Shown: in pieces, positions 3,405 through 62,919 of the stretch
Layout: the number at the start of each line of letters is the position of its first letter
How positions within the stretch are numbered: position 1 is the stretch's first letter
Origin: Candidatus Spyradenecus sp.
GTDB lineage: Bacteria; Verrucomicrobiota; Kiritimatiellia; RFP12; DVOR01
Direction of reading: 5' to 3'
Length of the DNA stretch: 64,000 nucleotides
Assembly (NCBI GenBank): GCA_045634445.1
Contig: JAZRAG010000014.1
Location: 15,272 to 79,271, forward strand
Made by a program: the position numbers and the translations under genes
The notes under the pieces: generated by a model
What the model saw: only the letters and a program-made list of their open reading frames with translations
What the model was told of the DNA's origin: nothing
The model's database searches: none

Positions 3405-4250
3405 ATGAATGATTACGAACTCCTTGATAGTGGCAATGGCGCAAAGCTTGAGCGCTTTGGTGATTTAGTCTTGGCGCGCCCTTGTGCGCAGGCCGTTTGG
3501 CAGAAACAACGCCCCGCATTGTGGAAAAAGGCAGATGCCTCTTTTGACCGTGAAGAGGGCAATCATTGGCATGGCCGTAATCGCTTGCCGAAGGAATGGG
3601 CGATTGATGTCGATGGCACGAAGTTTCGCCTTTCGGGTACAGATTTTGGCCACTTAGGTATCTTCCCTGAACAACGTGCTCAGTGGGCTTGGATTAAGGA
3701 ACAAGTCCGTACTGCGAAGGCAAAGAAGCGCCCTGCGCGTGTCTTGAACCTCTTTGCCTATTCTGGAGGTTCCACTTTGGCTGCAGCGCATGGCGGCGCA
3801 GAGGTCTGCCATGTGGATGCCTCTAAGGGGATGGTGCAGTGGGCGCGTGGCAATGCAGCGTTGAACGGTTTAGAAGCGCATCCGATTCGTTGGATTGTGG
3901 ATGATGTCCATAAGTTCATGAATCGCGAATTGCGTCGTGGCCGTCAATACGATGGTATCATTCTTGATCCGCCGACCTATGGTCGTGGCGGTAATGGTGA
4001 AACGTATAAGATTGAACGCGATCTCACGGAAACCTTGCGTTTGTGCCGTTCGCTTTTGAGTGACGATCCGCTCTTCTTGTTGTTAAGTGCGCATACGCCT
4101 GGCCATACGCCTATCGTATTGGAAAACATCTTAACGCAAGCATTGCGTGGTTTGGGTGGGACTTTCTCTGCCGGCGAGATGTGTTTGACTGGTGCAGAGG
4201 ACGTCTTTAAATTGCCTTCGGGTGCTTATGTTCGGTGGACACATGGCTAA
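3405..4250 (+). CDS. Class I SAM-dependent rRNA methyltransferase, RlmI/YccW-like
   Basis: SAM-binding motif region ([25 protein letters not shown]...DPPTYG) resembling RlmI-type C5-cytosine methyltransferases. Confidence 0.55.
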
Positions 4251-5703
4251 ACGCTCATTCGGTGCACTTGCGGGCGCGCTCTTTGCGGTTGTAGGCCTAA
4301 CGCCAATCGCGCAGGGCGCAGTATCGCTTTATCCAGATTACGCTGGGATTACAGTGCCGCCGAATATCGCACCGCTGAACTTTGATGTTCAGGGTGCCCC
4401 TGCAGATGCGCGTGTCCGCTTGCAAAGCGGCGAAGTCATCGCAGATTTTCCCACCCAAGTGCGCGTGCCGAAAGCGACTTGGCGACGCCTTTTGGCGGCA
4501 GGGGATTCGTATACGATTACGGTCACCAAGGACGCTGAAACGCTCTTCTGCGCGACGAATACCGTGGCCGCTGCAGCGATCGCGCCAACCTTGGCCTATC
4601 GTTTAATTCCGCCGAGTTATGAAAACTACCAAAATGTCGGCATTTACTGGCGTGATTTAACCTCCTTTGAGGAAAAACCGCTCTATACAAATCTGCAGAG
4701 TAGCACAAAGCAATGCGTCAATTGTCACCACTTTAACCAAGGTGATCCAGGTTCATTGCTCTTCCATCTGCGTGCGTCAAATGCCGGTACCGTCATCTTC
4801 ACAGACAAGGATGATGCGGGCATTAAGCGCAATTTTAAAGGTGGGCCATTCTTTGCTTCGGGTGTCTATCCCGCATGGCATCCATCGGGGAAGTTCATTG
4901 CCTTTTCGGTGAATGAGACCTTACAATGCTTTTACTATCGCAATGCTGACAAGATTGAGGTCTTGGATGCGCGCAGTGATATGTTGCTCTACGATTTAGA
5001 ACGCGATACTGCGCTGCCGATTGAAACAACGCCTGAAATCTTTGACTGTTTCCCTGCGTGGTCTCCTGATGGTAAGCAACTCTATTCTGTGGCTGCAATG
5101 CCTGGTTTTAAGGAAATGCCAGAGGATAAAAAGTCGCGCTCTGAACAAGCCATTTTGGGTTATACAAACCTCTGTTACAACTTAATCCTGCGCGATTACA
5201 ATGCTGAAACGCGGCTCTTTTCTTCGCCGCGCATGGTGATTAACGCCTCGAAGGAAAAGCGCTCGATTACCTTCCCGCGCGTTTCTCCAGATGGACGTTG
5301 GTTAGTCTTTACGTTGGGTCCGCAGGGCGTTTTTCACATTTGGCATCATAGTGCAGATTTGTGGATGCTTGATTTGCAAGAAAAGTCTTTCCGCCCGTTG
5401 AATGAGATTAATTCTCCAGATACGGAGAGTTACCATAGCTTTACGCCAGATGGCCATTGGATGGTCTTTTCTTCGCGCCGTGATGATGGGGCGTATACGC
5501 GTCCATACTTTACCCATTTCGACGCTAAAACGGGTGCTTTCACCAAGCCCTTCCTATTGCCTCAAGAGGAGCCTGCGCACCATAGTCAGCGGATGTTCTC
5601 CTATAACATCCCAGAGTTTGCGACAGGGCCCATTACGCGTTCTCCGCGTGAGATTCGTCGCGTCGCTGAACAACCAGCATTAGACGCCGCCTTCGCCGAA
5701 TAA
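4243..5703 (+). CDS. Secreted PD40/TolB-like beta-propeller protein with a CXXCH haem-binding motif
   Basis: Signal peptide ([25 protein letters not shown]). Repeated WxPDG/SPDG propeller blades. Single CVNCHH motif. Start overlaps the previous stop by 8 nt. Confidence 0.55.
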
Positions 5704-5823
5704 AACGCGTGCTAATAACGATTCACGCACCCAGTCAGCGTCTCCAACGCGAGTGGGTGCGTCTCTTTTTTATAGGAGAAAACTCTGTGAAAAGGGGAAC
5801 GGATGCAAACGGATGCAGTGCGA

Positions 5824-6486
5824 TTAGTCATTTGAGGCATGACTTTTCGCGGTGAGATTCCGCATGACCGCCTTTGCAATGTACCACTGCGCCACGCAGA
5901 ATGCCACAAAGAAGGCAGAGATGATGGTAATCACCAAGCCTGGATGCTGCGCCCAAAGACCCTTTAACCACGCAATCGCAGGCGCGTAAAGGGTTGGCAT
6001 GAAGAAGGTGATGATTGCGCTCTGGAAGAGGCAGGAGAGGCAGGAATAGAGGGTGTAGGCGCCAAAGTGCACACGGAGCATGCCAGCGGCCAATAATGCA
6101 GGGGTGCGAATCCCAGGCGTAAAACGAATGATAAACATCGTCTTACCAAGGTGACGGTCAAAGAAGTGTCCGCAGGCTTCAATTTGGTCTTGATGTTTGC
6201 GGACCCATTTCATGCGTGCGACAAAGCGCATGGCGAAGCGCACCGGAAGATACATGAGAATGTCGCCAATAAAAACACCCCAGAAGGTGCTTTGAAGCGC
6301 CGTCATCCAATGAATGATGTTTTCGGAAATCAAGGGCGGGACAATCGTCCAGCAGACGACATTTTCAAAGAAAAAGGTCGCAATCGCAGTGAACCACCCT
6401 TGAAGCCAAGGGAAATCACCAGAGGTGCGAATCGCCTCTACAAGCGAATCGAGATTAATCCCAATGGAGGCGATATAAGTCATCAT
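5824..6486 (-). CDS. DedA/VTT-family membrane protein
   Basis: Multi-TM protein with a DedA-like core (GDILMYLPVRFAMRF...RFTPGIRTPALLAAG). Overlaps the ftsI stop by 4 nt. Confidence 0.6.
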   Translation of the reverse strand: MMTYIASIGINLDSLVEAIRTSGDFPWLQGWFTAIATFFFENVVCWTIVPPLISENIIHWMTALQSTFWGVFIGDILMYLPVRFAMRFVARMKWVRKHQDQIEACGHFFDRHLGKTMFIIRFTPGIRTPALLAAGMLRVHFGAYTLYSCLSCLFQSAIITFFMPTLYAPAIAWLKGLWAQHPGLVITIISAFFVAFCVAQWYIAKAVMRNLTAKSHASND

Positions 6487-8291
6487 TTCGTTTTCTGCTC
6501 CTTTGGAAGTTTATCTGCGGGAATCCCTAAATAACGGCCAATGTCTTCTGCTACTGCAGCAAAGGTCGGTGCTGCCACGCCACCACCCGAACGCATCGAT
6601 CCGCGCGGCTTTTCAATCGTCACCAAAATGGCTAATTCTGGACGTGTGGCGGGGTAAACGCCGATGAATGAAACGTTATAGTCGCTGTGGTTATAATGTC
6701 CATTCACAGGAATCTGACCTGTGCCCGTTTTGCCTGCTACGGTGTAACTCGGCAGATTCGCGCGCCAGCCTGTGCCGCGAGGATTTAAAGCCGTTACAGA
6801 TTGTAGCATGTCCAACATCTTATCGCTCACTGTTTTTGAGAGCGGGCGCCCTAAAACATTCGGTGGATTGGCGCGCACCAATTCACCTTCGTGCGAGCGC
6901 ACTTCTTTGATGATGGTGGGCTGCATGAGATAACCGCCGTTGGCAATCGTGGAATAGGCGTTGACCAACTGAATTGCCGTCACGGAGATACTCTGGCCTA
7001 AGGGAATACGGGTAGGGGAGAGCTTATTCCACATGGCCTTTTTACGATAATCCCAGAAGATGCCATGTTCTTCACCGACGAGTTCAATGCCCGTCTTTCG
7101 GCCTAAGCCCATTGCATTAAAACTACGCCACAAAAGTTCGTTTTGTTCGGGCATTCCCTTTTTGGGGGCAGGTTGTGCCATGAGCAGACCAATCTGTGCA
7201 GTACCAATATTGGAGGACTGTCTCAAGATATCGCGAGCGGTAACCTTACCATACACCTTGTCGTGCAGCGGTTTCCCTGCATAGTACCACACCCCCGTGG
7301 TGCCCACATCAAAGACGGTGTGTTCGGTGATGATACCCATCTGCAAGGCCATCGCCACGGTAATTGACTTCATAACCGAGCCTGGCTCGTAGCAACGCGA
7401 AATAGCGATATTCTTCCACTCGTCTTGGAAGTGTTTGTTAAATTCTTGCGGTTTGAAACTCGGCAAGGTCGCCATGCCTAAGATTTCACCCGTTTTGACC
7501 TTTTGGACAATGATGGTGCCCGATTCTGCCTGGAAGTTAATCAACGCATTGGAGAGGGCATTTTCAATAATATACTGCACATTATTGTCAATGGTGAGGT
7601 AGATGTCATTGCCATGAATGGGCTCAACTTCATCAATGCGGCGCGAACGAATCTCTCGGCGACGGCCATCATAAACGGCATGCACCATGCCATTGGTGCC
7701 AGAGAGTTCCTTGTCAAAACGTTGCTCAATGCCATAGACGCCATCGCCATCGTGGTTCACAAACCCTAAAACGTGGCAGAGACGTGCACCATTGGGATAG
7801 GAGCGCACCGATTTAACGGTTGCGATGCTCACCCCTGCGATGCGATTGGTGGTATTAGAAGGGTCTTTACGACGCTGAAGCTCGTGAATGAGCGCGTCAT
7901 CGGTGATGGTGCAGATCTTGGTATAACGTCGTCCGCTGGCATAGGCTTCAATCAGTTTTTCCTGATTAATGCCTAAGAGCTCGGCCAATTCAATGGGCAT
8001 CGCATCGCGGTCAAGCTTCGGATTGGAGAGGGCCGGGTCTTGTGCGTCAATGGCGACCTCTCGCCCAGAAACGCTTTCGGCTAAAACAACGCCATTACGG
8101 TCAAGAATACGCCCGCGAAGACCGAGTAATTCGTAAGTGTTGTCATACTTTCGTTCGCGGTAATCTGGCGATTGCGGGATGAAAATATGCAGGTCAATGA
8201 GTTCCCACAAAACACGTAAAAAAACGACGATAACGCCCAGTAAAATGAGCGTCATCCATCGGTGTGCAATTTTATGCGGATTGTTGACCAT
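6483..8291 (-). CDS. ftsI: Peptidoglycan D,D-transpeptidase FtsI (class B PBP)
   Basis: N-terminal TM, dimerisation domain, and transpeptidase motifs SVMK (SxxK) and KTGT. Follows ftsL and rsmH. Confidence 0.85.
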   Translation of the reverse strand: MVNNPHKIAHRWMTLILLGVIVVFLRVLWELIDLHIFIPQSPDYRERKYDNTYELLGLRGRILDRNGVVLAESVSGREVAIDAQDPALSNPKLDRDAMPIELAELLGINQEKLIEAYASGRRYTKICTITDDALIHELQRRKDPSNTTNRIAGVSIATVKSVRSYPNGARLCHVLGFVNHDGDGVYGIEQRFDKELSGTNGMVHAVYDGRRREIRSRRIDEVEPIHGNDIYLTIDNNVQYIIENALSNALINFQAESGTIIVQKVKTGEILGMATLPSFKPQEFNKHFQDEWKNIAISRCYEPGSVMKSITVAMALQMGIITEHTVFDVGTTGVWYYAGKPLHDKVYGKVTARDILRQSSNIGTAQIGLLMAQPAPKKGMPEQNELLWRSFNAMGLGRKTGIELVGEEHGIFWDYRKKAMWNKLSPTRIPLGQSISVTAIQLVNAYSTIANGGYLMQPTIIKEVRSHEGELVRANPPNVLGRPLSKTVSDKMLDMLQSVTALNPRGTGWRANLPSYTVAGKTGTGQIPVNGHYNHSDYNVSFIGVYPATRPELAILVTIEKPRGSMRSGGGVAAPTFAAVAEDIGRYLGIPADKLPKEQKTK

Positions 8292-10479: not shown

Positions 10480-11215
10480 GAAGCGCCTAACAGCTCAAAA
10501 AACTAACCACCAAAATGCGCCCGAGCGCGAAGTGCTGGGCGTGAGCGAAGCGAACCTTCCACGGCTAAAACACACAAAACACACTAAAGGGACGTGGGGG
10601 CTGCGCGCCCCCACTCCCCGCGGCAGGGCTGAGCCCTGCACGGCATGTGTTTAGGAGTGCTCCGCAGGGAAGCCTTCGCACGGGACCTTCGCATTTTCCG
10701 CAAGAACGCTATCTCTTACTCCGCTTGCCCCTCGGCGCAAGAGAAATCCTGCTGCGCAGTCTTCCTCCCGAGGAGGCTACGCGGAGCGCTAAAGCCTTCG
10801 CTGGTTTTCCACGAGTCGCATAGGTCTTACAAGATGCTCGAAATGGGCACATCGTCCCGCTGCCCTTCGGGCCCGGGCGCATCGAGCTCATTTCTCGTCA
10901 TCTTGCGCTGACAAACCATAACATTTGGGAAAGAACTCCAATAATTTACGTAAGCGTTCCGTCGTCATACTCGGGAAGCGGAATGCAAAGCATAACGCTT
11001 CTTGCGCCGAGTTGAGCGACGGAACAAGATTTGCGTTCTTGCGTAAAATTCGTCGTGCTTTTCGCAGTCCTGCGGGCAAAGCCCGCCCAGCCCCGAAGGG
11101 GCGACAGACACATCACGAGATGCGTTGGCTTTTCGTGGGCGAAGCCCTCGTGTTACGAAAAGATCAACGTATCCTAGTGTCCTTAGTGTTAAACCCACTC
11201 GCTGTCCTGCTGCTA
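10480..11215 (+). repeat. Copy A (longest) of a modular intergenic repeat family: CA-rich tract, GC hairpin, conserved blocks
   Basis: Blocks cagaaCTAACCAC, cacaaaacacac, GTGGGGGCtgcgcGCCCCCAC, gtgctccgcagg, ttccacgagtcgca, gctcgaaatgggcacatc, catttctcgtcatcttgcgct and cagccccgaaggggcgacagacacatca-gagatgcgttgg recur in inverted orientation at 20337-20560, and partly at 13093-13190. Confidence 0.5.
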
Positions 11216-11221
11216 ACAAAA

Positions 11222-11270: not shown

Positions 11271-13067
11271 TTATTCGGTTTTAGCAGGCGCGGCCAAAAT
11301 TTCGCGGGCACGCGTTAAAGCATCCACGATGTGGCCATGGACATTGACCTGCCCAATGCGATCCAAGAAGCCCGAGCGTACCATCAGCATAAGGGGTTGC
11401 GCCGTGACGCCAGAGAGTACCAAGGTAATCCCACGCGCGCTGGCGTGTGCATACACCTCTTCAAGCGAGTGAAGGGCCGTTGCGTCCAAGACAAGCACAT
11501 GACGCATACGCAAGACCAAGACCCGCGGGCGGTTGCGACGATTCGAGAGCAAGGTGTCCTTAAACTTATCAGCGGCACCGAAGAAAAGGGCGCCATAGAC
11601 TTCGAAGACCTCAACATGCTCTGGCACCTCGATACCGGGTTGGCCCAAGTCATCTGCGCGCGGCGCTTCAGGAGCACCCGCGAGCAAACGGGTGATATTG
11701 CGCGCTTCAGTTGATTCGCTCATGCGTCGAATGAAGAGGAACGCCGCCAAAAGCACACCCGCCTGAATAGCCACGGTGAGGTCGATGAAGACGGTGAGTA
11801 AGAAGCTGGTCAACATCACGAGGATGTCTGAGCGCGTACTCTTAAAGATGCCCTTCACCAAGTGCAATTCACTCATGTTGTAAGCAACAATTGCCACCAC
11901 GCCACCCAGGGTTGCCATCGGGATCAACGCAGCATACCGCCCTAAGAACAACATAATAAATAAGAGGAAAACTGCGTGCAACATCCCTGCGACAGGTGTT
12001 TTACCACCGTTCTTGATGTTGGTCGCCGTGCGCGCGATTGCGCCCGTTGCTGGAATACCACCAAAGAGCGGAGAGAGGATATTGGCAATACCTTCACCGA
12101 TGAGTTCAGTATTTGAATTATGGCGACGCCCAATCATACCATCGGCCACCACAGCCGAGAGGAGCGACTCAATCCCCGCCAAAAGCGCGATTGAAATCGC
12201 CGGAGAAACCAATTCACGAATTGCGCTCCATTCAATCGCTGGGAATTGGGGCAAACTCAAGCTCATGCCCTCAGCCACAGCGGGGAACTTACTTCCGATA
12301 GTCTCCACATTGATGCCAAACGCCTCAAATGCCATTGCCAAAAGCGTGGTAATCACAATCGCCACAATCGACCCAGGCACCTTCTGCGTCACACGCTTCC
12401 AATAAATACAAATGAGAATGGTAATAAAGGAAATCGCCACCGCGCCCCAATTCACCGTTTCCAACGAATGCGCGTAAACATTGAGCTTCCCAACGAAGTC
12501 CCCTGGCATTTTCGCGTATTCCAGCGCCTTGAGCGCATCCGTGCAATTCAACCCAAGTAAGGCCTCAATCTGCCCCGCGAAGATGATTAAGGCAATGCCC
12601 GACGTAAAGCCTACCGTCACAGGGTAGGGAATGTATTTAATGATCGAGCCTAAACCACAAAAGCCGAGCACAATCAAAATCGCACCCGCCATCATGGTCG
12701 CAATCGCCAACCCCGACATGCCGAATTGCGCGTAAATGCCGTAGATAATGACGATAAACGCCCCCGTAGGACCGCCAATCTGCACGCGACACCCGCCCAA
12801 AGCCGAAATCGCAAACCCCGCAATCACCGCAGTGATCAAGCCTGCCTGCGGGGGGAGTCCTGCGGCGATAGAAAAAGCGATAGCCAAAGGTAAGGCTACC
12901 GCTGCCACAATCAAACCCGCCACGGCATCAGCCATGAAGGTCTTTAAATCATATCCTTCTTTGAAACATTGAACCATTTCAGGACGGAAGCGTTCCGAAA
13001 TGTTTTTGCCGATGCGTTTCCACTGGATTTTCATGTTGACCAATCCTTTTGTTTTAAAACGACTCAA
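11271..13067 (-). CDS. SulP-family anion transporter with C-terminal STAS domain
   Basis: SulP N-terminal motif (DAVAGLIVAAVALPLAIAFSIAAG), about 10 TM segments, and a STAS domain at the C-terminus. The start may instead be MKIQW at 13034. Confidence 0.8.
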   Translation of the reverse strand: MSRFKTKGLVNMKIQWKRIGKNISERFRPEMVQCFKEGYDLKTFMADAVAGLIVAAVALPLAIAFSIAAGLPPQAGLITAVIAGFAISALGGCRVQIGGPTGAFIVIIYGIYAQFGMSGLAIATMMAGAILIVLGFCGLGSIIKYIPYPVTVGFTSGIALIIFAGQIEALLGLNCTDALKALEYAKMPGDFVGKLNVYAHSLETVNWGAVAISFITILICIYWKRVTQKVPGSIVAIVITTLLAMAFEAFGINVETIGSKFPAVAEGMSLSLPQFPAIEWSAIRELVSPAISIALLAGIESLLSAVVADGMIGRRHNSNTELIGEGIANILSPLFGGIPATGAIARTATNIKNGGKTPVAGMLHAVFLLFIMLFLGRYAALIPMATLGGVVAIVAYNMSELHLVKGIFKSTRSDILVMLTSFLLTVFIDLTVAIQAGVLLAAFLFIRRMSESTEARNITRLLAGAPEAPRADDLGQPGIEVPEHVEVFEVYGALFFGAADKFKDTLLSNRRNRPRVLVLRMRHVLVLDATALHSLEEVYAHASARGITLVLSGVTAQPLMLMVRSGFLDRIGQVNVHGHIVDALTRAREILAAPAKTE

Positions 13068-13092: not shown

Positions 13093-13190
13093 AACTAAAG
13101 CGAAAAGGAAAGCCTAACATCACAGAAATTAACCACAAAACACACAAAACACACAAAAAATATGTGGGGGCTTCGCGCCCCCACCCCCGT
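13093..13190 (+). repeat. Copy B (5' fragment) of the repeat family: CA-tract plus GC hairpin
   Basis: cagaaactaa...aaccacaaaacacacaaaacacacaaaaaatatGTGGGGGCttcgcGCCCCCAC in the same orientation as copy A. Lies in the sulP promoter region, upstream of the tracrRNA. Confidence 0.5.
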
Positions 13191-13364: not shown

Positions 13365-13436
13365 AAAAAAGCCCTATACGGAGTACGTATAGGGAAGTCT
13401 TTCGACTGCGGCATATAGCCTTGTTGTGAAAAGACG
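13365..13436 (-). ncRNA. Predicted tracrRNA of the type II-C system (anti-repeat, nexus, terminator); the 5' end may extend to about 13460
   Basis: The minus strand reads (CUAGAAUUAAGCC)GUCUUUUCACAAC-AAGGCUAUAUGCCGCAG-UCGAAAGACUU-CCCUAUACG-uacuc-CGUAUAGGG-CUUUUUU. GUCUUUUCACAAC is a 13/13 complement of the repeat 5' end GUUGUGAAAAGAC. AAGGC..GCCGCA resembles the Neisseria Cas9 nexus. A 9-bp terminator stem is followed by U6. Confidence 0.6.
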
Positions 13437-13441
13437 GCTTA

Positions 13442-13486: not shown

Positions 13487-16400
13487 ATGAAGCGTTTAGG
13501 GCTTGATTTGGGTACGTCCTCTTTGGGGTGGGCGATTATTGATGATGAGTTAATGAATACTGCGCCTACGGGGTCTGCTGCGCCGAATCCGATTGATTGT
13601 GGTGTTGTTATTTTCCCAGAGGGTATGAACCGTGATAAATCGGATAATTTATCTTCGCCGGCAGCAACGCGTCGTATGGCACGTGCTGCGCGCCGTTTAA
13701 TTTATCGTCGTAAGTTGCGTAAGTTTCACTTGCTTCGTGCGTTGATGGATGCTGGGATGTGTCCTTTGAGTGAAGCGGGGTTAAAAGCATGGAAGGATGA
13801 GGGTAAATACCCTGTGAATGATGAAGCATTTATGCTTTGGCTTCGGTCTACCAATGAAAGTAATCCCTACGCAGACCGCAATGCTGCAGCGACGGCGCCA
13901 GTGGATAAATTAGTTTTGGGACGCGCCCTTTATCATATGGCACAGCGTCGAGGATTTAAGAGTTCTAAAAAAGAGCAGTTTGAAGCTTTGAGCGCGGAAG
14001 ATGTTACTGAACAGAAAGCGAAGAAGGCTTCAGAGGCTACGCAGACAAAGCAGGCGATTGATACATTAACCGCAGAGCTTGAAAAAGAGCATTTGACACT
14101 TGGGCAGTATTTTTATCGCCTTTTCCAGCAGAATGTGAAAGAAATTAATGCGGCAGGTTCTGGCGAAGTAAAGACCGAGCGTGTTCGTGGTCGTAAGACG
14201 GGACGTATTGAACACTATCAAAAAGAATTTGAACGTATTGCTGAGGTTCAAGGCCTTTCAGATGAATTGCGTGAACGTTTTGCTTCAATTCTTTTCTTCC
14301 AGCGTCCGCTTCGTATTCAACGTCATACCGTTGGGTATTGTGCACTTGAGAAAGGTCAGAATGCGCGTAAGTATCGTCGTTGCTTAAAGAGTCATCCTGA
14401 TTTTGAATACTATCGTGCACTTTGTTTCTTGAACAATCTTCGCATTGGTGAAACGTTAGCTTCGGGGAAAGATCGTCTTCAGCGCAATGAAGGCCGACGT
14501 TTAACCGATGAAGAACGTCAAAAGGTGTTAGCCGCTCTTCAGCGTATGAGTTCGTGTACGATTGAAGACCTTTTGGGTAAAAAGAAGCCGTTACTTGACA
14601 AGAAGTACTACACGAATTATCGCCCGAAAGATGATGCGCCAGTGATGGAAATTCGCGCACGTCTGACGGATTTGGGCATTCCTGAAGATAAGTGGCAGAT
14701 GGCATTAAATGCGGCAGTTAACTTTGATGACTTAGAAAAATTACTTGCTTGGGCACAAAAGCCAACAACTTTGGGCCTTTCTGCAGCAGATGCTCGCACA
14801 TTTGTGAAGATTCGCTTCTCTACAGATCGTGCAGATTATAGTTTGCATGCTATTCGCAAGATTATCCCTTATTTAGAGCGTGGATATACCTTGCGTAAAG
14901 CGACTTTCTGTGCAAAATTGGGTGACATCATTCCGAATTATGCAGAAAAACAAGAGGCTGTCCTTCAAGGTTTGTTAGATTGTGAAGCGCGCTATGAAGC
15001 GGAAAAGGAACGTAAAAAGCAAAATCAACGCCTTAAGGTACATCCGCTTGAGGGATATCATTACAAGAATTATTTGGCTACGACTTGGGATGTTTCGGAA
15101 GAAGCATATAAACAATTGTATGTGGATATTACAGAGACGGATAAGTCTAATCCTGTGTTGCCTCCTGTGGATTTAGAGTCTATTCGTAATCCGCTCGCTT
15201 GCCGTTCGCTAACGGTTTTGCGTCGTCTCGTTAACACCCTTCGCGCAAATGGTAAAATTGATGGGGATACGAACATCTTTATTGAGTTGGCACATACGGT
15301 GAATAGTGCAAATCAGTGCCGTGCGATTGAGATGTATCAGTTAGAGCAAAAGAAGAAGCGCGAAGAGGCAGTCCTGAAACTTCAGGAAATTATTCAAGAG
15401 CACAATCTTAAGATTGCGATTAACGAAGACTCTATTTTGCGTTACATTCTTTGGCAAGAGCAGAATGGTTGTTGCGTTTATACCGGTCAATCGATTGGCT
15501 TAAAGGCAATGCTGACGGAGTGTGATATTGAACATACAATTCCGCGTTCGCGTGGCGGTACAAATGAACTTGATAACCTCACACTTTGCACCAGCCATTA
15601 CAATCGCAATGTGAAGAAAGGAAAAATCCCAACGGAGTGTCCGAATGCCTCCGAAGAGTGGTATGACCCTGAAACAAAGATGACTTATCCTGCACTTGAA
15701 TTAAGCACACCGATTAAGAATTGGAAAGATGAACTTCAAAAGCTTAGGAAAGAGTTGGACAAAAAGCCTAAGCGTGGGGGTGACATCTCGGCTTATAATG
15801 ACGCACGTAAGCGTTGGCTTGTGAAGCAGATGAAGTGTACCTATTTGAAAAAGAAACTTAAATCATTTGAACTCTCTGCCGAAACTGTAGGTGGCGATGG
15901 CTTCATGCCACGTCAAATGGTTGACACAGGCATTATTACCACACAGGCTGTGAAATTCTTAAAGAGCCGCTATGAATATGTCTTTACGCGTAATGGCGCG
16001 GTAACCGCAGCTGCGCGTAAGGCTTGGGGAATCCAACACGAAGATGAAAAGAAGTCTCGTATTGATCATGTCCATCACGCAGTAGATGCATGTGTGATTG
16101 CGGCATTGGATACGAAAGCTTTCACGGATATTTGTTCTCAATTGGGTAAAGACGAAACCTTTACGCGTTGGAATACCGTTGTTTGTGAGCCTTATCCAGA
16201 CTTTGCACAACGCGTGAATGATGCAACCGAAAGCATTTTGGTACGCCACCTTCCTACGAATCGCCAGACCAAACCGATTGATAAGCGCCGTCAACGTATC
16301 CCGTTGTCGGTTGTGAAACGCCTTAAACAAGCACAATTATCCTCTGCAAAGGCAAAAAAGACATCGACCATCCGCGGTAGTCTCCATAATGATACGATTT

Positions 16401-17173
16401 ATGGAAAGATAAAGCTGAATGGTGAAGAAGTTGTCGTGCTCCGTAAGACAATTACAGCAGCAGGTACAGACTTTAAGAAGTGGGTGACACAAGGCAATGT
16501 CGTTGACAAAGGCGTTTGCGATGCACTACGAGCGCAAATCGCTGCTTATGAAGCGCAAGGCATTGCAGAAAAGGATTTGCCTAACCAAGTCTATAAAATG
16601 CCATCGGGTATTCCCATTAAGAAAATCCGTATTAAGGTGGCAAAACCCAAAAATCCTGATGCGATTCGTCAACAAGTCTTTGTACCCAAAGCGCCTGTTT
16701 ATGGCTCAGGAAGCGACATCCTTGGATTTAATGTCTGTAAAGATGCGAAGGGTAAACTTGTCGCAGAGCAGATCTCTTTGCTTGATGAGGCAAAGTCTTT
16801 CGGAGAAGGGATGTCTTCTGTGGACAAGTGTTTCAGCATCTATCCCATGCAACTTGCTTTCGCATATGAAAAGACTCCAGAAGAATTAAAGGCGCTTTCT
16901 TCCCGAGAATTGATGAAACGATTGTATGTCGTACGTCAAGTGGAAGAAGGTCAAGTCACATTTTACTATCACCGAGAAGCGAGAAGAGCGAAATTGCTTG
17001 CTGAAGAGTTAGAGAAAAACGGAAAGTCAAAAAAAGGTGAGTCTAAATTAAACTTCATTATCCCAGAGCGGAAACTACGAGTTGCAAGAGGTGTATTCTT
17101 AGACCACATGCTTTATGAAGGGGTTCACTTTACACTTTCAATGGATGGTGAGGTAGAATGGCTCAATGATTAA
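13487..17173 (+). CDS. cas9: Cas9 (type II-C), 1228 aa
   Basis: RuvC-I MKRLGLDLGTSSLGWAII. Arg-rich bridge helix (RRMARAARRLIYRRKLRK). HNH (DIEHTIPRSRGGTNELDNLTLCTSHYNRNV). RuvC-III (HHAVDACVIAAL). RBS aagga 9 nt upstream. Confidence 0.95.
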   Translation: MKRLGLDLGTSSLGWAIIDDELMNTAPTGSAAPNPIDCGVVIFPEGMNRDKSDNLSSPAATRRMARAARRLIYRRKLRKFHLLRALMDAGMCPLSEAGLKAWKDEGKYPVNDEAFMLWLRSTNESNPYADRNAAATAPVDKLVLGRALYHMAQRRGFKSSKKEQFEALSAEDVTEQKAKKASEATQTKQAIDTLTAELEKEHLTLGQYFYRLFQQNVKEINAAGSGEVKTERVRGRKTGRIEHYQKEFERIAEVQGLSDELRERFASILFFQRPLRIQRHTVGYCALEKGQNARKYRRCLKSHPDFEYYRALCFLNNLRIGETLASGKDRLQRNEGRRLTDEERQKVLAALQRMSSCTIEDLLGKKKPLLDKKYYTNYRPKDDAPVMEIRARLTDLGIPEDKWQMALNAAVNFDDLEKLLAWAQKPTTLGLSAADARTFVKIRFSTDRADYSLHAIRKIIPYLERGYTLRKATFCAKLGDIIPNYAEKQEAVLQGLLDCEARYEAEKERKKQNQRLKVHPLEGYHYKNYLATTWDVSEEAYKQLYVDITETDKSNPVLPPVDLESIRNPLACRSLTVLRRLVNTLRANGKIDGDTNIFIELAHTVNSANQCRAIEMYQLEQKKKREEAVLKLQEIIQEHNLKIAINEDSILRYILWQEQNGCCVYTGQSIGLKAMLTECDIEHTIPRSRGGTNELDNLTLCTSHYNRNVKKGKIPTECPNASEEWYDPETKMTYPALELSTPIKNWKDELQKLRKELDKKPKRGGDISAYNDARKRWLVKQMKCTYLKKKLKSFELSAETVGGDGFMPRQMVDTGIITTQAVKFLKSRYEYVFTRNGAVTAAARKAWGIQHEDEKKSRIDHVHHAVDACVIAALDTKAFTDICSQLGKDETFTRWNTVVCEPYPDFAQRVNDATESILVRHLPTNRQTKPIDKRRQRIPLSVVKRLKQAQLSSAKAKKTSTIRGSLHNDTIYGKIKLNGEEVVVLRKTITAAGTDFKKWVTQGNVVDKGVCDALRAQIAAYEAQGIAEKDLPNQVYKMPSGIPIKKIRIKVAKPKNPDAIRQQVFVPKAPVYGSGSDILGFNVCKDAKGKLVAEQISLLDEAKSFGEGMSSVDKCFSIYPMQLAFAYEKTPEELKALSSRELMKRLYVVRQVEEGQVTFYYHREARRAKLLAEELEKNGKSKKGESKLNFIIPERKLRVARGVFLDHMLYEGVHFTLSMDGEVEWLND

Positions 17174-18071
17174 ACGGACGCTTTGCTTCTCAACTCCAGG
17201 AAAACTCCGTCTTCACTTGCGCCAACTTCTTTGGTGTGGTGAAGATGGAAGAGAAGCAAGTGTGCCCATCGAAGATCTTGGGATTGTCATCTTAGAGTCC
17301 CCCTTAATCACTGTCAGTATGGCGCTATTACAAGCGCTAACAGAGGCATGTGTCGCGGTTGTCCTCTGTGATGCGTCCCATCTCCCTTCAGGCTATCTCC
17401 TTCCACAAGTATCACATACCCTTGCGAGTCGCTTTTTGAGAAATCAAATTGAACTTACAGATGCTCAATCGAGGCGCTTGTGGCAACAAATTGTTATCCG
17501 TAAAATCCAAAATCAAGCGTCTGTAATTCGGACATTAAATCCGCAAAAGGCGAACGAATTATGTGAGATGGCAGAGTTTGTTAAACGAGGAGATGTCACA
17601 AATATTGAAGCGCAAGCTGCGAAACTCTATTTTACGGCTTTTCCAATTTCAGAAGATGTCTTTCATCGTTCGCGTTATGGTACCATGCCTAATGCGGCAT
17701 TAAACTATGGATATGCGATTTTAAGAGCCGCAGTCGCACGATGTTTAGTAGCCTCAGGATTGAACACCACCTTAGGAATCCATCATCGTAATCAATATAA
17801 CCACTTTTGCCTTGCAGATGATGTGATGGAGCCCTATCGTCCCTTTGTAGATGCAATCGTCTTAGAGCATTTAGAGGCGTTCGAGAAAGCAGAAGAACCT
17901 ACGCAAGTCTCCACAAAAGGAAAGCAAATCCTCTTGCCGTTCTTGACAATGGATGTGCGAATAGGAGAATCAACGCGACCTCTTTTTAACGCCCTTCAAT
18001 TAACCACAGCATCTCTCGCACGATGTATCTGTAATGAACAAAAAACGCTCGAATTACCATCATTCCCATGA
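17166..18071 (+). CDS. cas1: Cas1 integrase
   Basis: Overlaps cas9 by 8 nt. Cas1-like conserved acidic and His residues. Position between cas9 and cas2. Confidence 0.9.
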   Translation: MIKRTLCFSTPGKLRLHLRQLLWCGEDGREASVPIEDLGIVILESPLITVSMALLQALTEACVAVVLCDASHLPSGYLLPQVSHTLASRFLRNQIELTDAQSRRLWQQIVIRKIQNQASVIRTLNPQKANELCEMAEFVKRGDVTNIEAQAAKLYFTAFPISEDVFHRSRYGTMPNAALNYGYAILRAAVARCLVASGLNTTLGIHHRNQYNHFCLADDVMEPYRPFVDAIVLEHLEAFEKAEEPTQVSTKGKQILLPFLTMDVRIGESTRPLFNALQLTTASLARCICNEQKTLELPSFP

Positions 18072-18415
18072 GTGAAGTTGAGTTTACAGCGATTAACCAT
18101 TACAAAGCAATGTGGCTTTACGCACTCTTTGATCTCCCAACAGAAACTAAACGGCAACGAAAAGCCGCTGCACAGTTTCGTAAAGGCCTCTTGCAAGATG
18201 GCTTTACAATGCTTCAATTTTCTGTGTATATTCGCCATTGTGCATCAAGAGAAAATGCAGAAGTTCACATTAAGCGCGTGAGAATGATAACACCAGAAGA
18301 GGGGCGTGTTGCGATTCTTGCGGTAACGGATAGACAATTCGATCAAATGGTCATTCTTTACGGGAAAAAAGAAAAACCTGCGCCACCTGCGCCAGTTCAA
18401 CTAGAACTTTTTTAA
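18068..18415 (+). CDS. cas2: Cas2
   Basis: 115 aa. Overlaps cas1 by 4 nt. Immediately precedes the array. Confidence 0.85.
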   Translation: MSEVEFTAINHYKAMWLYALFDLPTETKRQRKAAAQFRKGLLQDGFTMLQFSVYIRHCASRENAEVHIKRVRMITPEEGRVAILAVTDRQFDQMVILYGKKEKPAPPAPVQLELF

Positions 18416-18463
18416 ACAAAAAAAGAAACCGATTGACTCTTTTTTGAAGAAATCAATCGGTTT
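18416..18463 (-). terminator. Strong minus-strand intrinsic terminator between cas2 and the array; it would stop antisense pre-crRNA read-through
   Basis: Minus strand reads GAAACCGAUUGA-(16-nt loop)-UCAAUCGGUUUC followed by UUUUUUUGUUU. On the plus strand the same hairpin has no U-tract. Confidence 0.6.
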
Positions 18464-18477
18464 CTAAGTCTTCGGTA

Positions 18478-18498
18478 TGCTCCTTAAGATGTTATACA
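18478..18498. repeat. Inverted partial copy (18/21) of the CRISPR repeat, 21 bp from the first repeat: a hairpin partner, anti-repeat-like element
   Basis: ctccttaagatgttatacaat versus cttcttaagatttgatacaat (the reverse complement of the repeat's first 21 nt), with a 19-nt gap to the repeat at 18520. Confidence 0.5.
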
Positions 18499-18519
18499 AT
18501 AAAGACTTATGCATTCAAT

Positions 18520-20336
18520 ATTGTATCAAATCTTAAGAAGATGTCTTTTCACAACTCTCAAGCGGATTGACGTTACATCTCCAAAATTGTATCAAATCTT
18601 AAGAAGATGTCTTTTCACAACTGTACTTTACTAACATTAAGTGTCAGATTGATTGTATCAAATCTTAAGAAGATGTCTTTTCACAACTCTATATTGTTTA
18701 GTTTTGCAATCTCTTTGATTGTATCAAATCTTAAGAAGATGTCTTTTCACAACTGGCGGCCATTGAGACCTTCCGTCGTCAGAATTGTATCAAATCTTAA
18801 GAAGATGTCTTTTCACAACAACCTTCTTCAAGAATAGATTTAGAAACTTATTGTATCAAATCTTAAGAAGATGTCTTTTCACAACTGAAGAAGCGTATTC
18901 TTATGTTTGTTCTCAATTGTATCAAATCTTAAGAAGATGTCTTTTCACAACTCCTTTAGTCTATTCAACTGTTCAACGAGAATTGTATCAAATCTTAAGA
19001 AGATGTCTTTTCACAACACTTTGAACATTATCAATGTTTCGCAGACTATTGTATCAAATCTTAAGAAGATGTCTTTTCACAACTTCCGTTTAGCTGCGCT
19101 TTTCCTCTCTTCCATTGTATCAAATCTTAAGAAGATGTCTTTTCACAACACGAAAACCCAGAAGCAATCTTTTAAAGAATTGTATCAAATCTTAAGAAGA
19201 TGTCTTTTCACAACTCCGAACGGGAAAAAATGGTTTCAATCGTAATTGTATCAAATCTTAAGAAGATGTCTTTTCACAACCGTTATTTCAGCACTTTCTC
19301 GCGGTTTTGAATTGTATCAAATCTTAAGAAGATGTCTTTTCACAACTTTTAGTTCACAAACAGGAACATTAAAAGGATTGTATCAAATCTTAAGAAGATG
19401 TCTTTTCACAACCTATCTGCCTTTCCCTGGGTCTAGTTATGAATTGTATCAAATCTTAAGAAGATGTCTTTTCACAACTATAACTGGTATGCTGCTTGGT
19501 GCGGTGTCATTGTATCAAATCTTAAGAAGATGTCTTTTCACAACCTAAAACCCAGAAGCAATCTTTTAAAGAGAATTGTATCAAATCTTAAGAAGATGTC
19601 TTTTCACAACTGCAGTATCGCGTGCCGATGCTGGAGGCGGATTGTATCAAATCTTAAGAAGATGTCTTTTCACAACACCGCCCGAAGCAGTAATCGAAGC
19701 TAGTGCATTGTATCAAATCTTAAGAAGATGTCTTTTCACAACTGCGCTTGTAGCCATTGGTGGGATCAGCCAATTGTATCAAATCTTAAGAAGATGTCTT
19801 TTCACAACCACCGGCTCAAGATTGCGCGTGCTTTAGGGATTGTATCAAATCTTAAGAAGATGTCTTTTCACAACCTCCGGTGGCCCCATCTACCGCCTCG
19901 CCATATTGTATCAAATCTTAAGAAGATGTCTTTTCACAACATACCGACGTTGATTTCAATCAGTGTCCGGATTGTATCAAATCTTAAGAAGATGTCTTTT
20001 CACAACAATTGATGAATGTTGATATTTCAGATATTAATTGTATCAAATCTTAAGAAGATGTCTTTTCACAACAATCAGTTGGTATACAGGTTCTGGAATC
20101 GCATTGTATCAAATCTTAAGAAGATGTCTTTTCACAACAAAATATACTCGCAATACACAAAAGACCCTATTGTATCAAATCTTAAGAAGATGTCTTTTCA
20201 CAACTATCATGGCGACAATTAAAACAACAATAGCATTGTATCAAATCTTAAGAAGATGTCTTTTCACAACTACTGACGCGTTTAATTATATTTGTTCACA
20301 ATTGTATCAAATCTTAAGAAGATGTCTTTTCACAAC
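18520..20336 (-). CRISPR. CRISPR array: 28 copies of a 36-bp repeat (GTTGTGAAAAGACATCTTCTTAAGATTTGATACAAT in the inferred crRNA sense) and 27 spacers of 29-30 bp
   Basis: Exact 66-bp periodicity. All repeats are identical. The orientation call (minus strand) rests on the GTTGT...ACAAT termini, an extended -10 TGATACAAT at the repeat 3' end, the anti-repeat of the upstream tracrRNA, and the minus-strand terminator at 18416-18463. Confidence 0.95.
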
Positions 20337-20560
20337 CAACGCATCTCTTGATGTGTCTGTCGCCCCTTTGGGGCTGGAAAAGCGCGAGCGCAAGATGACG
20401 AGAAATGGAGATGTGCCCATTTCGAGCAGCGTGCAAGATTCGTGCGACTCGTGGAAATCCCTCGTCGTCCTGCGGAGCACCTTTTTGTGTGTTTTGTGTT
20501 TTTTGTGGTTAGTTTCTGTGCCGTCAGGCACTCGTATCCTGTGGTTTATTTCCTCACGTG
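20337..20560 (-). repeat. Copy C of the repeat family (inverted relative to A and B), abutting the terminal CRISPR repeat
   Basis: The reverse complement aligns block-for-block with copy A (cagaaactaaccac...cacaaaacacac, gtgctccgcagg, ttccacgagtcgca, gctcgaaatgggcacatc, catttctcgtcatcttgcgct, cagcccc-aaggggcgacagacacatcaagagatgcgttgg). The gcgttgg end lies 0 bp from the repeat. Confidence 0.5.
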
Positions 20561-58749: not shown

Positions 58750-58944
58750 GTTGTTTGCCTTTCGCTTTTTGAATCTAAAATGCTTCTATAGAAAATGTGA
58801 TAGAAACCGAGTGCGTATTTTAGCAAGTCACTTTTTTCCACGCAAATAAAAAATACAAAAAAATGATAAAAACCGTGTTGTGTCGCACGCTTCGTAAATG
58901 GATGAGGTTGAAGATATTAGGCCTTTTTCTGGCGGATAAAAAAT

Positions 58945-58975
58945 CACGCCCTGCGAGACGCAAGGCGTGAGGTGA
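58945..58975 (-). terminator. Intrinsic terminator downstream of the aldolase gene
   Basis: TCACGCC-(loop)-GGCGTGA followed by UUUUUUAU on the minus strand. Confidence 0.5.
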
Positions 58976-58994
58976 GATGTTGAGAACGCTCAGA

Positions 58995-59861
58995 TTAGAG
59001 GTCCTGATACATCTGATAAGCTTCATCCGGCTTCATGTTCTTGTGGATGACAGCTGCGACAGCGCGAATCATGGCTGCGGGCTTTTCGGACTGGAAGACG
59101 TTACGACCCATATCCACGCCTGCTGCACCTTCGTTCATTGCGCGATAGGCGAGTTCGAGCGCGTCGCGTTCGGGGATCTTCTTACCACCAGCGATCACGA
59201 TCGGCACGGGGCAGGAAGCGGTGACGGTTTCGAAGCCTTCGGTGTAGTAGGACTTCACGATGTTAGCACCGTTTTCAGCGCACATACGGGTGGCCAAACG
59301 GAAGTACTTTGCATCGCGGGTCATCTGCTTACCCACAGCGGTCACGCCCATGACAGGAATGCCATACTTCTGGCCGATATCCACGGTGTGGTAGAGGTTA
59401 GCCATCGTCTTAGCTTCCATGAGTTCGTCGCCCACTGCCACCATGACGGCCATTGCAGAGACGTTCATACGGATGGCGTCCTCGGGATCGATCACAACGT
59501 TGTCATTGAGGTTGGTGAGGATGGAAGAACCTGCGTCAGAGCGCAAGCAGACGGGGATCGTATTGGTCGGAGGGATGACCGAGCGGAGGATACCGCGGGT
59601 GCACATCAAGCAGTCGGCATACTTCATCAAAGGAACGATGGAGAGGTCGACGCGTTCAACGCCACCAGTGGGGCCCATGATGAAGCCGTGGTCGCAAGCC
59701 AACATCAAAGACTTGCCGTCCTTGGGATTGAAGATGCGGGAGAGGCGGTTCTTCATGCCCCAATCAAGATTCGAGCAGCCCTTCAAGGGGAAGCCGATGG
59801 TCTTCTGAGGGGTGCCAACGCCGAAAGCGCTAGCTTCTTTGAAATTATCCATATCTGCCAT
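58995..59861 (-). CDS. Class I aldolase of the DeoC/FbaB/LsrF family
   Basis: LMLACDHGFIMGP motif and a Schiff-base Lys region. Co-oriented with dhaL and dhaK. Confidence 0.6.
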   Translation of the reverse strand: MADMDNFKEASAFGVGTPQKTIGFPLKGCSNLDWGMKNRLSRIFNPKDGKSLMLACDHGFIMGPTGGVERVDLSIVPLMKYADCLMCTRGILRSVIPPTNTIPVCLRSDAGSSILTNLNDNVVIDPEDAIRMNVSAMAVMVAVGDELMEAKTMANLYHTVDIGQKYGIPVMGVTAVGKQMTRDAKYFRLATRMCAENGANIVKSYYTEGFETVTASCPVPIVIAGGKKIPERDALELAYRAMNEGAAGVDMGRNVFQSEKPAAMIRAVAAVIHKNMKPDEAYQMYQDL

Positions 59862-59898
59862 GGTAATTACTCCTTAAATTAGTAAAAGTGTTAGAGAA

Positions 59899-60498
59899 TT
59901 AAGCAAAAGCGGCGAAGATCATTGCCATGGAGGCAGAACCTGCGTCGATTGCGCCGATGGAGCGTTCGCCAAGGTTACGAGCGCGGCCGAACTTAGCCTG
60001 CATCTGAGCGGTTGCTTCAGAGCCAGCCTTAGCAGCGGCAGCGGCAGCAGCGAACATTGCAGCTTCACCTTCATCCTTAGCAGCGAGGAGTGCTTCGGTA
60101 GCGGGCTGGAGTGCATCCATCATGGTCTTGTCGCCCTTGCGAGCCTTGGTCACGCAGCAGATTTCATCAAAACCGCCTTCGAACATTTCAGCGACTTCGT
60201 CAGCGTTGAGTTCGGTTTTGCCAGCAGCGACAGCATCAGCCATACCTTCGCACCATGCGCCATAGAGGGAAGAGGTGGAGCCCGATGCTTCGGTTTCCAA
60301 CTTTTCAGCCATGTCGGTGATGTAGGACTTAAAGTCATCGCCTTCAGCGTGGACGATTGCGTTCAAAGCAGCCACGATGGCAGTGCCGTGGTCGCCATCG
60401 CCGCCGGTAGCAGCGTCAAGTTCGGAGAAGTGCTTTTCGTTGGCATTGATTGCCACCTGAGCGTTCTTCCAGATGTTCTTGAATTGTTCAAGTGTCAT
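59899..60498 (-). CDS. dhaL: Dihydroxyacetone kinase, ADP-binding subunit DhaL
   Basis: ATGGDGDHGT motif. Confidence 0.8.
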   Translation of the reverse strand: MTLEQFKNIWKNAQVAINANEKHFSELDAATGGDGDHGTAIVAALNAIVHAEGDDFKSYITDMAEKLETEASGSTSSLYGAWCEGMADAVAAGKTELNADEVAEMFEGGFDEICCVTKARKGDKTMMDALQPATEALLAAKDEGEAAMFAAAAAAAKAGSEATAQMQAKFGRARNLGERSIGAIDAGSASMAMIFAAFA

Positions 60499-60562
60499 GG
60501 TTGGGAGTTTCCTTTATAAAAGTGGGCGTCAGGAGGCGCGAAGGCCTCCTGAACACAGGGAA

Positions 60563-61570: not shown

Positions 61571-61604
61571 GGGAGAGACTCCTTAATTAAAGGGTTACGA
61601 AAGA

Positions 61605-61913
61605 TTACTTAGCCTGGTAGAATTCAACGACGGTGTCGTTGTCATAGACGAAAGCGATGTAAGCATTGCCGATGTCCATCTTATTCCAGAGGATCGACTT
61701 GCCTTCAAGTGCTGCATCAATGTCTTCCACTGCGTAAGCCACGTGGGGCTGTTCCTGAATGGCTGCAGCCATCGGAGAATCGGGTTCAAAGTAGAGGAAT
61801 TCAACAGCGTACTTATCCTGGGAGGCGTCGGTAATCCACACCTTCAAGGGTTCTACGTAAATCATGTTGGGAAGCTTTTCGCCAACGATCATGCCAGTGT
61901 GCATGTACTTCAT
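61605..61913 (-). CDS. Small hypothetical protein (glyoxalase/VOC-like half-domain?)
   Basis: 102-aa ORF. PHVAYAVEDIDAA resembles a VOC motif. Confidence 0.3.
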   Translation of the reverse strand: MKYMHTGMIVGEKLPNMIYVEPLKVWITDASQDKYAVEFLYFEPDSPMAAAIQEQPHVAYAVEDIDAALEGKSILWNKMDIGNAYIAFVYDNDTVVEFYQAK

Positions 61914-61993
61914 GGTGTAACTCCTAGTTGGATTGAACTAAAATGGAAGTGAAACGGCCTAAAGCCACAAAGGTGGCATTAGGCCTCTAAACA

Positions 61994-62719: not shown

Positions 62720-62919
62720 AATCGATTCCTTTCAATCAAATCGTGACAGTTTGTCGAAAACAATAAATCACTATTGATAAGTATAGAATAAAAATGCGAA
62801 AATTTCAATAAAATTACCTTAAAAATGAAAGAAAATTGCCTAAAAAGTGAAGTTTTTTCGCTTTTTTATGAAAATAATGCAAGTTCTCCATTCACACGTT
62901 CTTCTTCCTAATTAAAAAT

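Follow-up and report, generated by a model that had tools for sequence, protein, structure and literature searches.

A mosaic hairpin repeat family beside a type II-C CRISPR-Cas cassette in a Kiritimatiellia genome

Three repeat patches around sulP and the CRISPR-Cas cassette

A 64,000-nucleotide stretch of a Candidatus Spyradenecus sp. genome (Verrucomicrobiota; Kiritimatiellia; assembly GCA_045634445.1, contig JAZRAG010000014.1), referred to here as the window, carries three repeat patches, A, B and C, in three consecutive intergenic gaps. The gene order is mraZ, A, sulP, B, a cassette of cas genes and CRISPR repeats, C and purA. The patches probably belong to a lineage-specific, interspersed, mosaic hairpin repeat of a Kiritimatiellia genus, of the same kind as repetitive extragenic palindromic (REP) sequences, bacterial interspersed mosaic elements (BIMEs) and miniature inverted-repeat transposable elements (MITEs). 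The repeat is non-coding and consists of separable modules of 30–120 nt, all of them imperfect palindromes. Members of the family are scattered among unrelated genes, differ in their presence at orthologous sites, and form internally polar patches.

To the left of A lie mraZ, rsmH and ftsI, all on the minus strand. The gene sulP (11271–13034, minus strand) separates A from B, and purA starts at 20687, beyond C. Between B and C stand cas9 (13487–17173), cas1 (17166–18071) and cas2 (18068–18415), which are encoded on the plus strand and were assigned to type II-C with Pfam. They are followed by a CRISPR array (18520–20336) of 28 repeats of 36 nt each, for which the minus strand is the sense strand of the CRISPR RNAs (crRNAs). 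The cassette has a GC content of 36–45% (43–45% in the cas genes), against about 52% in its flanks. Homologues of PurA and SulP bear Kiritimatiellia names, and an exact-sequence look-up of the window's SulP, PurA and Cas9 matched no record. No Neisseria or Pasteurellaceae uptake sequences occur in the window.

A preliminary description of this locus proposed three copies of one repeat family sharing a series of blocks, and these blocks were confirmed in place, far above chance. The 18-mer GGGGCGACAGACACATCA has exactly two sites in the window, at 11098 (plus) in A and 20349 (minus) in C, where 0.03 are expected; the 21-mer CATTTCTCGTCATCTTGCGCT likewise has exactly two, at 10889 (plus) in A and 20387 (minus) in C, where none is expected. 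The GC hairpin GTGGGGGC-N5-GCCCCCAC is found only at 10594 (A) and 13164 (B) and is lacking in C, and tracts of the CACAAAA type occur in all three patches. A and C share inverted arms of 51 nt (84% identity), 42 nt (95%) and 21 nt (100%). B and C share inverted arms of 48 nt at 90% identity (13112–13159 and 20482–20529), and A and B a direct repeat of 52 nt at 87%. A three-way alignment shows conserved blocks interrupted by gaps, as had been described, and the short open reading frames (ORFs) of 88, 111, 109 and 83 aa noted within the patches do exist. The blocks had been called ordered as well as conserved: they are present, but they are separable modules that take other orders and orientations elsewhere. 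No further copy was found in the window, either by BLAST at word size 8 or with a covariance model run with filters off.

The module set comprises M1, M2, M3, small GC hairpins (mostly with C[GNA]G loops) and T. The T module is composed of a terminator-like GC hairpin, a T run, tandem T-rich heptamers and the motif GTGGTT. Loci in relatives are denoted below by L and a number.

Copy A (10480–11217, plus strand) is a composite patch lying between the sulP terminator and the region upstream of mraZ. Its T module lies on the minus strand (10500–10614) and has a hairpin at 10594–10614, followed by T-rich heptamers and GTGGTTAG; it matches L052 (958–1044) at 94%, and its architecture is that of the T modules of the related organism. 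There follows an inverted, diverged M1 copy (10681–10804, minus; covariance model score 98 bits), which is a 71% inverted repeat with 10953–11052 and was taken into the M1 alignment. Next is M3 (10803–10909, plus), which reads TTTCCACGAGTCGCA, then GAAATGG/CCATTTC, then CATCTTGCGCT, and carries an inserted 33-nt hairpin in its loop. M1 (10945–11061, plus; 123 bits) is a hairpin of 28 bp whose apical stem varies. The header GCAGTCC (11064) and two GC hairpins, GCGGGC-AAA-GCCCGC and GCCCC-GAA-GGGGC, occupy 11062–11102 (plus). Lastly, M2 (11103–11196, plus) is a 95-nt unit in which a long hairpin (GATGCGTTGGCTTTTCGT...ACGAAAAG..CAACGTATC) is followed by a TAGTGTT-repeat tail of the form TAGTGT(C/T); it has about 40 homologues at 82–95% identity. 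The stretch GTTACGAAAAG (11151–11161), which is similar to the beginning of the CRISPR repeat, was considered as a degenerate repeat and rejected, as it forms the 3' arm of M2's hairpin and is kept in the approximately 40 copies.

Copy B (13093–13190, minus strand) is a solo T module upstream of the sulP promoter, located between the start of sulP (13034) and the trans-activating CRISPR RNA (tracrRNA) gene, as the preliminary description had it. Read on the minus strand, it consists of a hairpin (13184–13164), ATATTTTTTG, (TGTGTTT)n and GTGGTTAA, and its identity is 87% with A and 90% with C.

Copy C (20337–20530) is inverted relative to A and B. It opens with the first 26–27 nt of M2 (GACAGACACATCAAGA plus GATGCGTTGG; 20337–20362, minus), fused to the terminal CRISPR repeat. 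The remainder of the M2 hairpin is missing, and M1 also lacks a counterpart. A GCCCC-AAA-GGGGC hairpin and M3, whose stem is a hybrid with two mismatches, span 20362–20462 (minus). The patch closes with the GTGCTCCGCAGG block and a T-type tract (TTTTTGTGTGTTTTGTGTTTTTTGTGGTTAG; 20470–20530, plus), which has no GC hairpin and lies about 160 nt upstream of purA. The small GCCCC-type hairpins (GCCCC-GAA-GGGGC) at 11090–11110 (minus) and 20354–20374 (plus) gave sub-threshold Rfam matches to the terminal hairpin of Acido-Lenti-1 RNA, scoring 13–16 bits where the gathering threshold is 37; a generic hairpin resemblance is the probable cause.

Hairpin structure, polarity and dispersal of the modules

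A check for covariation showed that the M1 and M3 hairpins are kept by compensatory changes. In M1, 97.8% of alignment cells are paired and 17 of the 31 pairs are altered on both sides; none of 500 shuffles equalled this, and slid controls reached 34–45%. At least three versions of the M1 apical stem exist, unrelated in sequence but of the same shape. For M3, an alignment with nine homologues has changes on both sides at 6 of 16 pairs, and two pairs are broken in the hybrid stem of C. Folding energies are low, at -309 kcal/mol (z = -10.2) for A and z = -3.7 for C. By reading of the sequences, one strand has mostly triloops of the type C[GNA]G. The patches are polar, as shown by the header GCAGTCC, which has 87 occurrences on the strand that is sense for M2 and 11 on the other, with a chance expectation of about 11. 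Among L013–L061, 20 of the 26 contigs that are at least 2.5 kb long have the M2 sense strand as their G-rich strand (binomial p ~0.009, with the length threshold picked after the fact), which may be a replication-strand bias.

The T modules differ in how closely they resemble intrinsic terminators. B, read on the minus strand towards sulP, has an 8-bp stem with seven GC pairs and the tail ATATTTTTTG, and is terminator-like. The features of an intrinsic terminator are present in B and in the T modules of relatives and weak in A, and C has no hairpin. All three T modules of the window face the start of the next gene (mraZ, sulP and purA), and in relatives five have the same orientation as the downstream gene and three the opposite; both samples are too small to interpret. 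From this composition, T modules would probably act as intrinsic terminators or insulators placed ahead of the next promoter.

The preliminary description held that copies confined to this region, with neither covariation-supported structure nor transcripts, would point to local duplication. Beyond the window, modules were found on about 40 contigs of a congener and in a second relative, beside unrelated neighbours. A 19-mer of M2 occurs in 49 metagenome stretches, of which eight are chance matches inside genes and about 41 are true copies. Nearly all of the true copies come from one assembly (JAEIGA01) and one from RHMF01, and many sit at contig ends. BLAST searches of metagenome loci with A, B and C brought up M1, M3 (which makes up the core of C) and the T tract as well; the order of these modules varied, and both relative orientations were seen. 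Homologues of the M1 unit at 10945–11061 occur in L004, L018, L020, L024, L028, L032, L050, L059 and L060. In L004 and L005, where Cas9 is 77% identical to that of the window, the intergenic regions are full of M1 and M2 homologues, heptamer tracts and small hairpins.

The JAEIGA01 organism is congeneric with that of the window, with 87% nucleotide identity over housekeeping and cas segments of 3.7–4.8 kb. This is the level at which L048 matches window positions 58997–62736 and the sulP-bearing contig L062 matches 58938–62741, and the same cas9-cas1 cassette is found in L033, where 4755 bp match at 87%. The genes next to modules are varied and include housekeeping genes; among them are GH97, aminotransferase, HipA, glycosyltransferase, dehydrogenase and AAA_14 ATPase genes. 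The heptamer unit differs by site, being CACAAAA in the window and CAACCAA/CAACTAA, GAGTATTTT, CAGAACC or GAATGAC in relatives.

With homologous modules at many loci of the congener and the second relative, a purely local duplication does not hold. Similarly, the M3 region of C is 93% identical to L043 and 90% to L019; since it is nearer to the relative's copies (93%) than to M3 of A (84%), the three patches are not just the products of one local duplication. The 18-mer shared by A and C (GGGGCGACAGACACATCA) gave only two chance matches in genome contigs, both inside genes of unrelated metagenome-assembled genomes (MAGs). Viral contigs contained no match to M1, M2 or the CRISPR repeat, and thus gave no sign of a phage origin. 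No modules occur in L008–L012, and no CRISPR repeats in the metagenome-derived repeat loci L013–L061.

A search for a gene common to module neighbourhoods yielded only a family of small helix-turn-helix (HTH) proteins, and no transposase. These proteins (160–230 aa, 37% identical) adjoin module patches in L004 (8236–8895), L060 (6863–7555) and L059 (2202–2681), and give weak C-terminal matches to HTH or sigma-70 region-4-like domains; the one in L004 lies 1.1 kb upstream of cas9. In addition, six-frame ORFs of 100–230 aa that run across patches mimic protein families, and clusters of nine and four such ORFs are repeat translations (L015, L016, L018, L025, L030, L032, L036, L043, L049, L057–L059 and L061). 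Gene callers are likely to report repeat-derived ORF artefacts in these genomes.

The nature of the repeat family

The preliminary description likened the blocks to structured non-coding RNAs (ncRNAs) or MITE-like elements. The MITE-like reading is the better fit of the two, in that module order and orientation vary and orientation is random with respect to genes. The gene upstream of M2 is in the same orientation in 14 cases and the opposite in 13, and for the gene downstream the counts are 13 and 12. The Rfam scans that had been suggested matched no family at gathering thresholds, and under relaxed settings gave only sub-threshold, terminator-like matches. Random orientation, variable order and the lack of an Rfam match together favour a genomic repeat of the REP, BIME or MITE kind over an untranslated region (UTR) element or small RNA (sRNA).

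REP sequences, BIMEs and paired REPs (REPINs) of Enterobacteria and Pseudomonas are extragenic hairpins that occur in many copies and mosaic patches, with proposed roles in termination (PMC2817692, PMC3116915, PMC3733652). The family described here is similarly extragenic, non-coding and hairpin-forming, is a composite mosaic that includes non-palindromic motifs, and varies in presence among close relatives. Its tandem heptamer tracts, which belong to the unit, set it apart from REP sequences, as does the fact that no gene for a REP-associated tyrosine transposase (RAYT) was seen. By analogy with REP/BIME, REPIN or MITE elements, the modules would multiply and reshuffle at the DNA level.

A number of observations weigh against this assignment. 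The modules are 60–120 nt long, compared with 20–40 nt for REP sequences, and the GTAG/CGTC tag of the latter is absent: GTA is found only in loops (GCGC-GTA-GCGC), M2 begins with GATGCG, and the outer stem of M1 is AAGCG. The alternating orientation of BIMEs is also absent, as the header is polar and M2 copies paired on the same contig lie mainly in direct orientation. A Pfam search of the 16 genes beside module patches in relatives' loci brought up no transposase, and neither a RAYT nor another mobilising gene was seen near any copy; the window genes beside A, B and C are mraZ, sulP, cas9/cas1/cas2 and purA. Neither a target-site duplication nor a clean pair of empty and filled sites was obtained, so mobility is inferred only. 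Module flanks are mostly other modules, which makes target-site duplications unreadable, and the sequence at hand contains no parent insertion sequence. The census of M2 was drawn from contigs of metagenome assemblies and not from a closed genome. The family is rare in the window: its three patches lie within a 10-kb span around sulP and the cassette, and random dispersal does not explain such clustering. Lastly, a strand-specific function of RNA or single-stranded DNA would also be consistent with the conserved G.T wobble positions and with the polarity that header and loops show between strands.

Ordered, optional sub-units also characterise the pneumococcal BOX element (boxA-boxB(n)-boxC) and the Correia elements of Neisseria, which, like the present family, lie between genes, are predicted to be strongly structured and may have promoter or terminator effects. 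The present family has no sequence relation to either, has more kinds of module, and reshuffles and inverts them freely. Correia elements have terminal inverted repeats with TA duplication, a combination that was not seen here. The short tandemly repeated repetitive (STRR) sequences of cyanobacteria are intergenic tandem heptanucleotides that vary by site, accompanied by small mobile hairpins, and in this they resemble the family; they belong to another phylum and show no sequence similarity, and the tracts described here are tied to a GC hairpin and the GTGGTT end motif. Integron attC sites are comparable as imperfect palindromes of about 60–130 nt in which the outer parts are conserved and the apical stem can be swapped, and which have features specific to one strand. 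Unlike attC sites, the modules have no integrase and no demonstrated R''/R' core sites, stand in both orientations relative to genes, and neighbour ordinary housekeeping genes rather than cassettes.

The rival explanation that the modules are domains of structured ncRNAs, either cis-acting UTR elements or sRNAs, with hairpins selected as RNA and patches transcribed, appears unlikely. It would account for the strong compensatory variation in M1 and M3, the very low folding energies, the G.U positions conserved on the sense strand, the insertion of hairpins into loops, the strand polarity of the header and the resemblance of T to an intrinsic terminator. However, palindromic DNA repeats yield the same covariation signal, orientation relative to flanking genes is random, the order and orientation of modules differ among loci, A is preceded by no convincing promoter, and no Rfam family was matched. 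The loops are mostly GNA triloops and not the GNRA or UUCG tetraloops that are typical of RNAs, and the modules, with their tens of copies, break assemblies as genomic repeats do. A further reading, to which we would give little credence, is that the modules form a strand-polar recombination or mobility system. The header CAYRTGCAGTCC would mark units of GNA-triloop hairpins, handled as single-stranded DNA by an HUH-type or integrase-like enzyme, and the patches would be joints for the exchange of gene blocks, the compact CRISPR-Cas cassette and sulP among them, between Kiritimatiellia genomes. The header counts and the bias of M2 to the G-rich strand suggest this, as do the position of patches at synteny breaks and the fusion of the CRISPR array inside an M2 unit. 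If the modules were indeed such joints, this would help to explain how a compact Cas9 cassette moves without recognisable transposons.

An interspersed mosaic repeat of the REP, BIME or MITE kind is an ordinary type of element, and literature on Kiritimatiellae and REP elements yielded no description of such repeats; none was found for the phylum of Kiritimatiellia. The family is documented here in a phylum whose genomes are known almost only from MAGs. Such repeats have practical consequences, in that they break assemblies, cause spurious ORF calls and mark synteny breakpoints.

The CRISPR-Cas cassette and its junction with copy C

The CRISPR-Cas unit is a separate, self-contained cassette of low GC content. 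The order tracrRNA-cas9-cas1-cas2-array is found in five contexts (the window, L003, L004, L033 and L066), and homology among them extends from just outside the tracrRNA gene (about 13306 in the window) to the array end at the terminal repeat. The tracrRNA is about 90% conserved in L003, L004, L033 and L066. In the window it lies at 13365–13440 on the minus strand, with a promoter (TTGACA-18-TAGAAT, 13471–13442), an anti-repeat recognised by complementarity, a nexus-like stretch (AAGGCUAUAUGCCG) and a terminator (13394–13372). B lies outside the cassette, separated from its left boundary at about 13306 by some 110 nt of unique sequence.

Relatives with sulP have in common with the window only 13067–11219, which comprises sulP and its terminator; the neighbouring genes differ and neither A nor B is present, and homology stops at 11219, next to A. 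Upstream of sulP, B is absent in L062, and L063 and L064/L065 have no sequence in common with the window beyond 13067 and 13031, respectively. Relatives with purA share only the sequence from 20621 onward. Consequently, with sharing limited to the sulP and purA units, the gene order appears as a series of blocks whose joints are repeat patches, and A, B and C each mark a point where synteny with close relatives is broken. The repeats may have caused these joins, or may have built up in the new long spacers. For L048 and L062, synteny with the window is restricted to 58.9–62.7 kb. An empty-site comparison gave no clean empty/filled pair, as the purA and sulP relatives have different neighbours.

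Accessory genes stand beside purA and sulP in relatives, which indicates that these neighbourhoods are variable regions. Upstream of purA, L007 carries an unannotated partial ORF of 293 aa (1–882), and L064 has two GmrSD-type genes (4073–7326) about 2.7–6 kb upstream of sulP. In L062, whose SulP is 92% identical, a tRNA gene (6700–6785) lies upstream of sulP with no repeat patch there; the sole module patch of this contig (1578–1789) is 5 kb from sulP, between unrelated genes.

The preliminary description offered two explanations for the position of the patches. One was that recombination between dispersed copies brought in or rearranged the 7.2-kb cassette. In a fuller form of this reading, homologous recombination (B with C, or A with C) would have inserted, inverted or relocated the cassette, sulP or both, such that the repeats cause the local gene order; we regard this as rather improbable. 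It draws on the inverted 48 nt shared by B and C at 90%, the location of all patches exactly at synteny breaks, the fusion of the array with a truncated M2 unit, the features private to A and C and missing from relatives' copies (the GCCCC hairpin and GACAGACACATCA), and the modules that adjoin the cassette in L004 and in L033 too. However, the left cassette boundary is removed from B by unique sequence, the cassettes of L003 and L066 have flanks without modules, adjacency is expected by chance in genomes rich in modules, and neither the reciprocal product nor an alternative arrangement was observed. Simple insertion of the cassette into one element was likewise considered and rejected, because the M2 half that is missing does not occur at the opposite boundary of the cassette. 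An intact terminal repeat (20301–20336) joined to 26–27 nt of M2 looks like, and would most simply be, the junction left by a later deletion or rearrangement, with the CRISPR-Cas unit probably moving as its own cassette and C standing at its trailer end.

The other explanation, that C is or contains a functional CRISPR leader, providing a promoter, an integration signal or both, is highly improbable. C does resemble a leader in that it lies directly against the terminal CRISPR repeat, with zero spacing and one base in common, exactly as first described. crRNA transcription follows the minus strand and runs from the side of C in the direction of cas2, which places C immediately upstream of the array. 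The C side is therefore the leader side for crRNA transcription but not for spacer acquisition, for which it is the trailer end. Unlike the leader of a type II system, C is not conserved with the cassette and stands at the non-acquiring end. Homologues of its modules occur at loci without CRISPR repeats, and the array-distal flanks of L004 and L066 have no match to C, so it is not conserved at the ends of orthologous arrays. In addition, each repeat ends in TGATACAAT, an extended -10 promoter box, an arrangement known from the type II-C systems of Neisseria and Campylobacter (PMC5965381). With promoters inside the repeats, C is dispensable for transcription.

Several observations on relatives point to another site for the leader. 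The stretch of about 100 bp between cas2 and the array (18416–18519, plus strand in the window) is leader-like in its conservation across cassettes, with 88% mean column identity among the window, L003, L004 and L005, and is recognisable in L066. The near-identical strains L004 and L005 have identical Cas9 and differ in their cas2-proximal spacers, and in both L004 and L066 the terminal repeats are degenerate at the cas-distal end, which is equivalent to that of C. Judged from these relatives rather than from this strain, the acquiring end is most likely the cas2 side and C the trailer end. The adaptation leader is most likely the conserved cas2-proximal spacer of the cassette. This removes a tempting misreading, in which a leader is common to dispersed elements, and shows where in this type II-C cassette the true leader-like region lies.

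The cas2-array spacer also contains, at 18482–18500, an inverted partial copy of the 3' half of the repeat (CCTTAAGATGTTATACAAT), which forms a palindrome with the first repeat. An inverted partial repeat copy is likewise present in L004 (about 15000–15020) and L066 (about 11010–11030). In the window, the same 18482–18500 segment includes an extended -10-like sequence (TGTTATACAAT) on the plus strand, directed into the array and antisense to the crRNAs. Within the array, an identical 26-nt spacer sequence appears at 19153–19178 and 19547–19572, six units apart, and one unit has a period of 65 nt instead of 66.

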